A stretch of DNA of 4,948 nt from a virus (lineage: Duplodnaviria > Heunggongvirae > Uroviricota > Caudoviricetes). Made by a program: the position numbers and the translations under genes. Shown here one piece after another: positions 2,773 to 4,948 of the stretch. Where the stretch lies: the IMG/VR virus record IMGVR_UViG_3300029650_000085. One strand, written 5' to 3'. Numbering within the stretch: the stretch's first letter is position 1; every line of letters starts with the position of its first letter. The notes beneath the pieces were generated by a model, which was not told the origin of the DNA, made no database searches, and saw nothing but the letters and a program-made list of their open reading frames with translations.

Positions 2773-3249
2773 ATGCTTAGTGGTAAAGACTTAGGCCGAG
2801 CGATAGAGCAGGCCATTAACAAAAAAATTGCATCAGGAGCCGTCAAATCAAAGGCGGAAATCGCACGTCATTTCAAAGTCCAACCACCATCAATCCATGA
2901 CTGGATTAAGAAAGGTTCGATAAGTAAAGACAAACTTCCAGAACTATGGCGTTTCTTTTCTGATGTGGTTGGTCCAGAGCATTGGGGGCTTAACGAATAC
3001 CCCATACCAACCCCATCCACTTCAGATACAAAAAGTGAACTTTTAGACATAAACAGCCTTTATCAAGCCGCCTCTGATGAAAAAAAAGCAATTGTGGCTT
3101 TCATCTTATCTGGAAATGCTACGGAGCCTAGTTGGGTTGATTATGACGTTCGCGCCTACATTGCCGCAATGGAAATGAAGGTAGCTAACTATCTGAAAAA
3201 TCAAGAATCAAAACGGAAAAGCCAGAACATCACCAAGACAGGAACTTAA
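2773..3249 (+). CDS. racR: RacR-type prophage repressor (HTH)
   Basis: 158-aa ORF with ATG at 2773-2775 and TAA at 3247-3249. HTH-like segment SKAEIARHFKVQPPSIHDWIKKGSIS. Length and N-terminus match my recollection of Rac RacR. AGGAG at 2757-2761 lies 11 nt upstream. Divergent from the cro-like gene. Confidence 0.85.
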   Translation: MLSGKDLGRAIEQAINKKIASGAVKSKAEIARHFKVQPPSIHDWIKKGSISKDKLPELWRFFSDVVGPEHWGLNEYPIPTPSTSDTKSELLDINSLYQAASDEKKAIVAFILSGNATEPSWVDYDVRAYIAAMEMKVANYLKNQESKRKSQNITKTGT

Positions 3250-3567: not shown

Positions 3568-3720
3568 ATGGATACTATCGAGCTTGGCAACAACGAATCT
3601 CTGGTATGCGGCGTGTTTCCCAACCAGGACGGCACGTTTACCGCGATGACATATACCAGAAGCAAAACGTTTAAAACTGAAGCTGGCGCGCGTCGCTGGT
3701 TAACCAGAAACACTGACTGA
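3568..3720 (+). CDS. Small hypothetical protein (~50 aa), YdaF/YdfA-like by position
   Basis: ATG at 3568-3570 with GAGG 5 nt upstream; stop TGA at 3718-3720 overlaps the next ATG (ATGA). The track ORF could instead start at 3487 (77 aa, weaker RBS). The shorter form is chosen on RBS spacing and on the ~51-aa length I recall for the homologous small proteins. Confidence 0.5.
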   Translation: MDTIELGNNESLVCGVFPNQDGTFTAMTYTRSKTFKTEAGARRWLTRNTD

Positions 3721-4052
3721 TGAGGTTGACGATGGAATTTAAAGATTTACCAGTACCATTCCAGGAAATGGCATCGAATGTGGTTCGCTCTCAACTGGCG
3801 ACTCTTGACCTGAGTACCGTAGAAAAAGAAACCATCGACAATATATCCGGTAACGTACGCCGAGCCTTTATCGGGCTGTACGAAGAGAAGCAGCTCTCTG
3901 ATAACCAGGATTTACATGAAAAATACTTCCTGGATCTAATGGACATCATTGATAAGGGGTTTGGCTTGTTAATGAAAAAGAAAGGGATTCGAATAGAACC
4001 CCTTGAAAATTACTTTGCAACAAAAAGCATTAATTCTTTTGATTCAAAATAA
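3720..4052 (+). CDS. Hypothetical protein (110 aa), translationally coupled to the upstream small ORF
   Basis: ATG at 3720-3722 overlaps the upstream stop; alternative ATG at 3732 with GAGG upstream. TAA at 4050-4052. AT-rich coding sequence. The 3' end overlaps the convergent 91-aa ORF by 23 nt. Confidence 0.55.
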   Translation: MRLTMEFKDLPVPFQEMASNVVRSQLATLDLSTVEKETIDNISGNVRRAFIGLYEEKQLSDNQDLHEKYFLDLMDIIDKGFGLLMKKKGIRIEPLENYFATKSINSFDSK

Positions 4053-4305
4053 GAGAATTAATTACAGACTTAACATGCTCTTTCTCATGATTGAAGCTCT
4101 CATGATTGAAAGTGCCGGGTTGAAGCGAGTCGATATAATCAACAAGACTCTGTCGTACGACTTCATTTTTATCCATAACAGATGCAAGAAATGAAATTGC
4201 TAAAAGAGTTATATCACTACGCGCCGCAGCATGTTGCAATGCTTTATCAAAATTATTAATCTGGCGTATCAGGGAGTTAATGATTTCATCATTTTCAGTC
4301 GACAT
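4030..4305 (-). CDS. Hypothetical small protein (91 aa), antisense to the rightward early operon
   Basis: ATG at 4303-4305 preceded by a consensus AGGAGG with 5-nt spacing; TAA at 4030-4032. One hydrophobic segment (ITLLAISFLASVM) and a tandem FNHES/FNHEKE repeat (DNA direct repeat ctcatgattgaa at 4083-4094 and 4099-4110). The track ORF extends to 4638 (TTG start) through a GC-rich Arg-rich frame that I consider non-coding. Confidence 0.5.
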   Translation of the reverse strand: MSTENDEIINSLIRQINNFDKALQHAAARSDITLLAISFLASVMDKNEVVRQSLVDYIDSLQPGTFNHESFNHEKEHVKSVINSLILNQKN

Positions 4306-4639
4306 TTCACCCTCCTGAGGGTTGGTGATTAAGGAGTTCTCCACGGGTGAGGTGGAGTGCGTGCGCCGGACACGGGTGAGCATCCGGCACTGACAGTTTA
4401 CTGAAAGGATATTTCCCTGAAAAGTCAGACCATAACGCGAAAGCGCCCGGCGAGGTAGCTGGTTCATAGATAGCCTGTCGTTAAATTTTCGTCGACCGTG
4501 CGTTTCCGGTTGTGGCAATCCGCGAAATGGCGCGGCGGTAAGTATGGCGGGGTTATTCCTTCCCCGTTGAGGACACCGAGTTGTCAGGTTGACCATACGC
4601 TTAAGCGACAACCCCGCTGCAACGCCCTCTGTTATCAAT

Positions 4640-4697
4640 TTTCTGGTGACGTTTGGCGGTATCAGTTTTACTCCGTGACTGCTCTGCCGCCCTTTTT
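4640..4697 (+). ncRNA. dicF: DicF-type small RNA (cell-division/ftsZ-targeting sRNA of the dicB operon)
   Basis: The sequence tttctggtgacgtttggcggtatcagttttactccgtgactgctctgccgccc (4640-4692, 53 nt) followed by TTTTT matches the DicF sequence as I remember it. It lies between upstream small ORFs and a downstream short ORF, as in the Qin dicB operon. Recalled, not searched. Confidence 0.75.
4655..4697 (+). terminator. Intrinsic terminator hairpin forming the DicF 3' end
   Basis: GGCGG (4655-4659) pairs with CCGCC (4687-4691), with internal CAGU/ACUG pairing, followed by a T5 tract at 4693-4697. Confidence 0.6.
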
Positions 4698-4866: not shown

Positions 4867-4948
4867 ATGAAAACGTTATTACCAAACGTTAAGGAAGGTG
4901 CGAATAAGCGGGGAAATTCTTCTCGGCTGACTCAGTCATTTCATTTCT
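4867..4948 (+). CDS. Short ORF in the dicB position, partial (N-terminal 27 codons; continues beyond the window end)
   Basis: ATG at 4867-4869 with GAGG 8 nt upstream (MKTLLPNVKEGANKRGNSSRLTQSFHF...). Lies about 170 nt downstream of DicF, as dicB does in Qin. Identity with DicB is not verified. Confidence 0.45.
   Translation, partial: MKTLLPNVKEGANKRGNSSRLTQSFHF

Follow-up and report, generated by a model that had tools for sequence, protein, structure and literature searches.

The DNA stretch analyzed here comprises 4,948 nucleotides (nt) of a Caudoviricetes virus (IMG/VR record IMGVR_UViG_3300029650_000085). This whole stretch, referred to below as the window, covers the immunity and early region of a lambdoid prophage of Escherichia coli that resembles Rac and Qin. 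On its minus strand, opposite the rightward early operon, lies an open reading frame (ORF) of 91 amino acids (aa), MSTENDEIINSL...LNQKN. The ORF occupies a slot between a convergent plus-strand ORF and a GC-rich conserved block, whose first ~95 nt form the leader of the 91-aa ORF (table 1). Genes found in this slot in different prophages are called cargo genes here.

Table 1. Features of the cargo slot and of the remaining window
Feature	Position	Strand or direction	Remarks
91-aa cargo ORF	4030..4305	-	ATG 4305-4303, stop 4032-4030
15-nt tandem repeat coding FNHES-FNHEK	4081..4110	-	1-3 copies in natural alleles, always in frame
Shine-Dalgarno AGGAGG	4311..4316	-	Spacer of 5 nt to ATG; AGGAG (4316-4312) serves as 3' arm in leader helix HP3
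Anti-Shine-Dalgarno CUCCU	4332..4336	-	5' arm of HP3, 5 base pairs (bp) with AGGAG 4316-4312
HP2 hairpin CUCCAC-N7-GUGGAG	4339..4357	-	6 bp; two pairs with compensatory double changes (UA/CG; CG/GC/UA)
HP1 hairpin	4364..4389	-	10 bp including three invariant G.U pairs
Predicted -10 hexamer TAAACT	4395..4400	-	5 nt upstream of HP1; by sequence inspection
Terminator-like hairpin and T tract	3972..4004 (hairpin 4004-3982)	-	26 nt after the stop, inside the plus-strand ORF
Convergent ORF (phrog_6937)	3732-4052	+	106 aa (110 aa from ATG at 3720); left flank of cargo slot
GC-rich conserved block	4306-4640		Plus strand: long untranslated DicF precursor region; first ~95 nt on minus strand: cargo leader
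DicF small RNA	4641-4692	+	RF00039, 76.7 bits
dicB start	4868	Rightward	Only the beginning of this gene lies in the window
DUF1391/ydfA gene	3568-3720	Rightward	
racR	2773-3249	Rightward	
ydaS/cro-like gene	2325-2669	Leftward	
ydaT	1916-2341	Leftward	
Replication-initiator-like gene	961-1908	Leftward	
DnaC-like ATPase gene	208-954	Leftward	

The 91-aa ORF Is a Gene under Purifying Selection

The preliminary description of this DNA had drawn attention to the 91-aa ORF as the only one in the window with AGGAGG-N5-ATG. When both strands were scanned for AGGAGG-N4-9-ATG, the site at 4316-4311 was indeed the sole instance (shuffled sequences contain 0.22 on average). The coordinates agree with the reported 23-nt convergent overlap with the 3' end of the plus-strand ORF. 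The ORF was also said to sit in an AT-rich patch beside a GC-rich block, and the GC content is 0.32-0.38 over 3900-4275 and 0.53-0.56 over 4350-4650. The FNHES/FNHEK tandem repeat noted in the protein corresponds to a 15-nt DNA repeat. The hydrophobic stretch noted in the protein (ITLLAISFLASVM) is present as well, but neither its length nor its hydrophobicity suffices to span a membrane.

Comparison of alleles indicates that the 91-aa ORF is a real protein-coding gene under purifying selection. The 58 prophage copies in IMG/VR comprise 14 DNA alleles and 7 protein alleles with zero frameshifts or stops, and alleles that differ in the number of repeat units (1, 2, or 3) all remain in frame. 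Relative to an allele of 85% DNA identity in another prophage (L002), the ORF has accumulated 43 substitutions and is still open. The ratio of nonsynonymous to synonymous substitution rates (dN/dS) in this comparison is 0.28, the lowest among the six frames. In a randomization with 20,000 random-mutation replicates, 0.19% were both stop-free and as low in the ratio of nonsynonymous to synonymous differences per site (pN/pS), corresponding to a P-value of ~0.002.

The gene was found in 198 of 5426 complete E. coli genomes. RefSeq annotates its product as hypothetical protein WP_000102678.1 (UniProt A0A0H0FUR3), and the exact 91-aa sequence is a "MULTISPECIES" entry with at least 1000 contigs, some of them from Salmonella enterica and Escherichia albertii. 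Since the protein is already present as hypothetical in both databases, the earlier suggestion of something undescribed holds in the sense of uncharacterized, but not in the sense of unrecorded.

A Conserved Structured Leader Precedes Many Cargo Genes

The Shine-Dalgarno sequence of the 91-aa ORF belongs to a conserved structured leader that is common to many cargo genes, a feature not seen in the preliminary description. The leader was analyzed in loci L005, L007, L009, L013-L015, and L195-L322. Its column identity is 82-86% over loci whose cargo proteins are either unrelated or only 26-36% identical. Three helices (HP1, HP2, and HP3) were all recovered by RNAalifold, the last of which pairs with the Shine-Dalgarno sequence. 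Among 28 distinct leader variants, 97.8% of cells were paired, compared with 35-52% when the partners were slid by 1-3 columns. Compensatory double changes occur in three pairs of the leader, including the closing pair of HP3, which covaries between U-A (17 of 28 variants) and A-U (10 of 28).

The leader folds well solely in the cargo sense. Its folding z-score in the window sequence is -2.9 in this sense and -0.03 in the other, and the mean over 13 diverse variants is -3.6 versus -1.2. The three invariant G.U pairs of HP1 would be A.C mismatches in the opposite sense, and thus only 6 bp are possible in plus-sense RNA. We also considered an HK022 put-like or a nut-like antitermination element in the plus-sense early transcript. 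This was rejected as the main explanation, since the cargo sense is favored by the wobble variants, the folding z-scores, and the invariant G.U pairs alike; the plus strand may also have a role. The leader had no match in Rfam even at E <= 10.

[quoted passage not shown] The leader also occurs in Salmonella elements that have C4 antisense RNA in place of DicF, and it is therefore not simply part of the DicF precursor. In these P2/P4-like elements, which carry a homolog of the 91-aa gene, the C4 antisense RNA (RF01695, 77 bits) was detected downstream in the early operon, roughly in the place of DicF (L013 4026-4113 and L014 4034-4121). The DicF and C4 contexts are alike in that the cargo slot lies just upstream of a processed regulatory RNA. 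DicF-like sequences (TTGGCGGTA...CCGCCCTTTTTAAA and a terminator) were also observed between the opposite-strand gene and ydaE/kilR in Salmonella Rac-like prophages (L009 4715-4790) and in K-12 Rac (L315 5780-5850); the L009 sequence scores under the Rfam gathering score for DicF.

A further arrangement was observed in the Qin prophage of K-12 (L008 ~1480-1800, equivalent to window 4320-4620). This prophage retains HP1, HP2, and the anti-Shine-Dalgarno sequence, whereas the Shine-Dalgarno sequence, ATG, and cargo are missing, and ydfC adjoins. If active, the leader promoter in K-12 Qin would yield a transcript antisense to ydfC. A survey of K-12 small RNAs includes no antisense transcript near dicF.

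The Slot Is a Cargo Hot-Spot

To survey the slot, we scanned IMG/VR first for a pattern of the upstream block and next for its Salmonella-type form. Comparison of the resulting sequences indicates that the slot is a variable cargo hot-spot, with about ten interchangeable small genes in different E. coli and Salmonella prophages. Besides the three subfamilies of the 91-aa protein, about ten small ORFs (32-104 aa) that are unrelated to one another begin after the same ~95-nt leader and Shine-Dalgarno sequence. They encode proteins of 77 aa (phrog_10348), 73 aa (phrog_7249), 63 or 59 aa (phrog_2605), and 104 aa (phrog_4753), a second 73-aa type, a 62-aa zinc-ribbon protein, a 74-aa protein with a TTG start, a 70-aa protein, and a proline-rich peptide of 32-33 aa. 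A scan of genome contigs with the pattern GCCGGA-N8-14-TCCGGCGCAC proved too loose and returned only chance matches in GC-rich genomes.

Most Qin-like prophages, including that of K-12, match the window only from ~4320 rightward and have neither the ORF nor its ATG and Shine-Dalgarno sequence. Other prophages match from 4302, with the Shine-Dalgarno sequence and ATG included, and then contain a different minus-strand ORF. In K-12 Qin, which is otherwise collinear, ydfC is joined directly to the conserved block at ~4317-4320. Alignment with a locus carrying a 73-aa cargo, in which both flanks are common, limits the cargo-specific DNA to approximately the ORF alone (~4010-4050 to 4303). In Salmonella Rac-like prophages, the homolog of the 91-aa gene lies between the repressor-side genes and ydaE/recE/recT, which is the place of sieB in Rac.

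The preliminary description had proposed, partly by reference to sieB in Rac, a moron-like cargo gene opposite the early operon in a variable hot-spot, and had suggested a comparison of related prophages. That comparison found the slot to vary, with the gene missing from K-12 Qin and unrelated ORFs elsewhere. The statement on Rac was correct, the order in K-12 DH1 being racR, a phage protein gene, ydaF, sieB (opposite strand), and kilR. Judged from these sequence comparisons, a moron-like cargo gene at the position of sieB is well supported. The function suggested along with it, phage exclusion or host benefit, is more tentative: the protein is unrelated to SieB, is predicted to be soluble, and has no significant match in PADLOC, Pfam, NCBIfam, or PDB.

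Two observations concern zinc-binding proteins. The 62-aa zinc-ribbon cargo of L299 is weakly similar to the ECs_2282 and Lar families (E ~0.004-0.007, under their cut-offs). In a related prophage, a second small gene opposite the operon (L002 4166-4366, minus strand) encodes a 66-aa "ECs_2282 family putative zinc-binding protein" and is flanked by the repressor gene and ydfC.

A Small Orphan Protein Family

The 91-aa protein is acidic (isoelectric point [pI] 5.4; grand average of hydropathy -0.31), and its highest Kyte-Doolittle mean over 19 residues is 1.43. The corresponding maxima of its sister subfamilies are 0.92-0.93, and all three subfamilies are acidic to near-neutral and below the hydrophobicity of a membrane span. 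The protein is predicted to be soluble and all-helical. An AlphaFold2 model built with the three-subfamily alignment has four helices (residues 2-26, 28-43, 48-60, and 68-84). A type I toxin, i.e., a hydrophobic peptide of less than ~60 aa with a structured leader, was ruled out, as the protein has 91 aa and is hydrophilic and acidic.

Two groups of relatives were identified. One is a 92-aa protein at the same position in other E. coli prophages, with 26-28% identity (28% in the BLASTP pair with E = 9e-6 over 86 residues); its family reaches Salmonella Rac-like prophages. The other is a third subfamily in Salmonella P2/P4-like elements, with 34-36% identity, which a profile of the first two subfamilies finds at E ~1e-19. 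The 92-aa members belong to phrog_18692, a family of unknown function (E = 5.9e-63), and are the nearest relatives of the 91-aa protein. Length, slot, and leader are alike and the invariant residues are held in common. However, the 91-aa protein itself matches the phrog_18692 hidden Markov model at E = 0.022 only and constitutes a separate E. coli-centered subfamily with the 15-nt repeat insertion.

Fourteen residues are invariant over the three subfamilies (the initiator Met, L12, D20, R29, D31, L34, S38, K46, R51, E74, K75, I82, S84, and L87), and they are mainly charged (D20, R29, D31, K46, R51, E74, and K75). Such residues fit a small soluble helical protein that may act by binding. No Pfam family was found at E <= 1 for the 91-aa protein or for any of 12 family members. 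In PADLOC, its sole match was a weak one to BrxA (E = 0.014, 12.7 bits), and none of eight other slot proteins (seven unrelated cargo types and the 92-aa homolog) had a match at E <= 0.01. A phmmer search of 1.84 billion representative proteins recovered the E. coli cluster of the ORF and no other. In 50,697 phage records, tblastn detected no match, and literature searches by protein accession and leader sequence gave none either. The homology and structure searches suggested in the preliminary description thus provided relatives and a helical model, but no function from a domain or fold. The family is a small orphan family limited to temperate-phage elements of Escherichia and Salmonella.

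Candidate Promoter and Terminator

A -10-like hexamer is located 5-6 nt before HP1 in all leader groups, mostly, as in the Salmonella-type leaders, with an extended TGn, and the sequence upstream of it is not alignable between groups. A near-perfect palindrome was observed at window 4415-4429 (CCCTGA-AAAG-TCAGGG in L007 and L009, with one arm degenerate in the window). It overlaps the place of the would-be -35 element and could be an operator or an RNA hairpin; wobble variants lean to the minus sense. Downstream of the cargo, the 4004-3982 hairpin is common to loci that carry a different 73-aa cargo.

The Convergent Plus-Strand ORF

The plus-strand ORF that overlaps the cargo is itself under purifying selection (pN/pS 0.26). 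Its N-terminal module of ~55 residues (MEFKDLP...GLYEEK) is common to phrog_6937, 1363, 2151, and 9419, whose C-terminal parts differ greatly (106-201 aa overall). What forms the C-terminal part in L007 is encoded by a 71-aa gene of its own in Salmonella L009.

The Prophage and Its IS5 Junction

Around the cargo slot, the early operon runs in the order racR, ydfA, DicF, dicB, exo, xis, and int. E. coli strain 2017C-4173W12 is 100% identical to the window over 3950-4450, and beyond the window its prophage has an exonuclease gene, xis, and int; it adjoins ompW. The right end of the window (4894-4948) is IS5 terminal sequence, inserted after approximately the eighth codon of dicB. The alignment of the window to intact dicB loci stops at ~4893, and in a strain with an identical IS5 junction an IS5 family transposase is annotated beside the truncated dicB. 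In the genome of 2017C-4173W12 (NZ_CP030768.1), the ompW-adjacent prophage matches the left and central window, and the dicB::IS5 junction matches another prophage ~416 kb away. Because the two parts of the window match separate prophages, its source genome either lies outside the complete-genome set or is a recombinant of two resident prophages.

Interpretation and Alternative Explanations

The best overall explanation, to which we assign a probability of about 0.6, is that the 91-aa ORF is an accessory (moron) gene on a conserved leader platform that acts in phage-phage or phage-host conflict. The structural and architectural part of this explanation is highly probable. The conflict role is a tentative proposal, for which we draw on the analogy with sieB, its counterpart in position, and on how rapidly unrelated cargo genes replace one another. 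Under this explanation, the 91-aa gene would be transcribed alone from its own promoter against the early operon, so that its expression would be possible while RacR keeps the operon off. Translation would be gated by the opening of HP3 over the Shine-Dalgarno sequence, and transcription would end at the hairpin inside the neighboring ORF. The protein may then work by binding another protein, in either superinfection exclusion or counter-defense.

Several results weigh against this explanation. Both transcription and translation of the ORF are predictions from sequence. We infer the -10 hexamer from its conserved position alone, the E. coli form TAAACT without TGn is weak, and a scan for the promoter consensus called no sigma-70 site in front of the ORF. 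No similar terminator was found after the homologs in L007, L009, and L013. The covariation of the leader arose from few independent events, essentially the E. coli group versus two or three groups of the Salmonella type. Most of the leader persists in K-12 Qin, which has no cargo, and the conservation of the block may therefore be due mainly to what it does on the plus strand as DicF precursor. As for function, PHROGs, PADLOC, and NCBIfam gave nothing significant for the 91-aa protein and hence no link to exclusion or defense, and no known function was recovered for the other cargo types from these databases or Pfam. A profile search of PDB sequences found nothing, and Foldseek against PDB and BFVD gave a best E of ~1. 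The two AlphaFold2 models reached predicted local distance difference test (pLDDT) scores of 62.9 and 68.5, and even the latter, from the three-subfamily alignment, is of moderate confidence only.

The main rival explanation is that the unit is mainly regulatory. A convergent promoter and its antisense RNA would damp read-through into the toxic DicF/DicB (elsewhere C4/ant-type) module or feed RNase III, and the ORFs would merely hitch-hike. It would account for a leader conserved far above any cargo, for its retention in K-12 Qin without a Shine-Dalgarno sequence or ORF, and for its always facing the early operon just upstream of processed DicF or C4; moreover, RNase III processing is known in the block (PMC10448788). 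Yet the 91-aa ORF itself is under purifying selection, a strong and correctly spaced Shine-Dalgarno sequence stands before every cargo type, and a covarying helix that masks it is sensible only if translation matters. Together with the silence of the K-12 small-RNA survey near dicF, these points make this explanation unlikely in our judgment. A somewhat smaller chance is given to the idea that the 91-aa protein is the antidote or immunity partner of the convergent protein, whose variable C-terminal part would be the effector in the style of polymorphic toxins. Immunity genes on the opposite strand are found in pore-forming colicin operons, and the convergent ORF would suit such a pairing in several respects: its N-terminal ~55 residues are conserved while the C-termini change together with several cargo types, all three subfamilies have a convergent overlap of 23-41 nt, and selection acts on the ORF. 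Co-occurrence, on which we rejected a toxin-antitoxin or effector-immunity pair, tells otherwise. The same plus-strand ORF, identical to approximately residue 95, also accompanies an unrelated 73-aa cargo, it is retained in L006 where the cargo is deleted, and its place in Salmonella P2/P4-like elements is taken by an unrelated convergent protein of 171-191 aa. Because the genes overlap in antisense, a resemblance between the C-terminal tails is unavoidable.

That the 91-aa ORF is a chance antisense frame in AT-rich DNA is very improbable and already largely refuted. The protein has no recognizable domains, its taxonomic range is very narrow, and the 1.84 billion representative proteins include no relative beyond the E. 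coli cluster. Nevertheless, the ORF is under purifying selection and intact in all 58 copies, changes in repeat number are always in frame, the start has the only consensus Shine-Dalgarno-ATG of the window, and distant protein homologs exist at the same position where the DNA is no longer alignable. We see next to no chance that the true product is a longer protein of 145, 171, or 202 aa that starts in the GC-rich block. The frame upstream of the ATG at 4305 is indeed open through 4638 and beyond, the cargo frame as a whole (4030-4638) has 202 codons from a TTG, and several database entries have upstream starts. The in-frame upstream region is open for 130 codons here but for just 0-32 codons in other leaders, from which it follows that the 91-aa start is correct. 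A 1-nt indel before the ATG of the 77-aa cargo type also shifts the frame, the extension region is the conserved structured leader, and the strong Shine-Dalgarno sequence fronts the 91-aa start. The 91-, 145-, 171-, and 202-aa versions of the gene coexist in databases because the frame happens to stay open through the GC-rich block in this prophage, and the 145- to 202-aa versions are artefacts.

Returning to the accessory gene on a leader platform, the 91-aa gene is an uncharacterized prophage gene in an early-region hot-spot and, being already annotated as hypothetical, is not categorically new. The leader is more novel than the gene: it masks the Shine-Dalgarno sequence, serves swappable small ORFs, and has no match in Rfam or the searchable literature. 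Speculatively, the ~95-nt module could be an undescribed cis-regulatory RNA, a fixed platform on which lambdoid and P2/P4-like prophages swap small conflict proteins in antisense to their early operon. The 91-aa protein could then be an effector with a new fold and target, and its translation might be gated by temperature, a small RNA, or a phage protein.

Phage exclusion and host modulation are functions classically supplied by accessory genes, such as sieB and rex, that prophages express against the early operon. The slot appears to hold a library of uncharacterized 32-104-aa proteins under one leader in a large share of the prophages of E. coli and Salmonella. Solving one cargo and the leader switch would help with the others, and would show how expression is controlled beside the toxic DicF/DicB module. 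The 91-aa gene alone is a modest addition, although a real orphan gene.

Comparison with Known Systems

The closest parallel in map place and orientation is sieB of Rac, a single gene opposite the early operon that runs from racR to kilR/recE, convergent with an upstream small ORF. The gene is named for superinfection exclusion B and has relatives in P22 and lambda. The likeness does not extend to the products. The 91-aa protein has no sequence similarity to SieB and matches neither the Pfam SieB family (PF14163) nor any other Pfam family. Rac SieB has 162 aa, a pI of 9.9, and membrane-type hydrophobic segments (19-residue maximum 2.19), in contrast to the acidic, predicted soluble 91-aa protein with its maximum of 1.43. 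The proximal leader of Rac sieB was also checked and is unlike the cargo leader.

Leaders that mask the Shine-Dalgarno sequence are known from lambda cIII and from the ROSE and fourU RNA thermometers. As in these RNAs, a helix of the cargo leader pairs CUCC with GGAG of the ribosome-binding site, and this pairing is kept by compensatory change. The cargo leader differs from them in having no Rfam match and in its architecture, which consists of a 5'-terminal 10-bp hairpin, a 6-bp hairpin, and a 5-bp anti-Shine-Dalgarno helix with a loop of ~17 nt.

The morons of lambdoid phages are accessory transcription units of the type described by Hendrix, e.g., lambda lom/bor and the HK97 morons. Like them, the 91-aa gene is present or absent between collinear relatives and differs in GC content from the adjoining block (0.32-0.38 vs. 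0.53-0.56). It may also have expression signals of its own, and its orientation may permit expression while the surrounding operon is repressed. Unlike in morons, the ORF alone is exchanged here, and the predicted promoter, the leader, and the Shine-Dalgarno sequence stay in place as a conserved platform.

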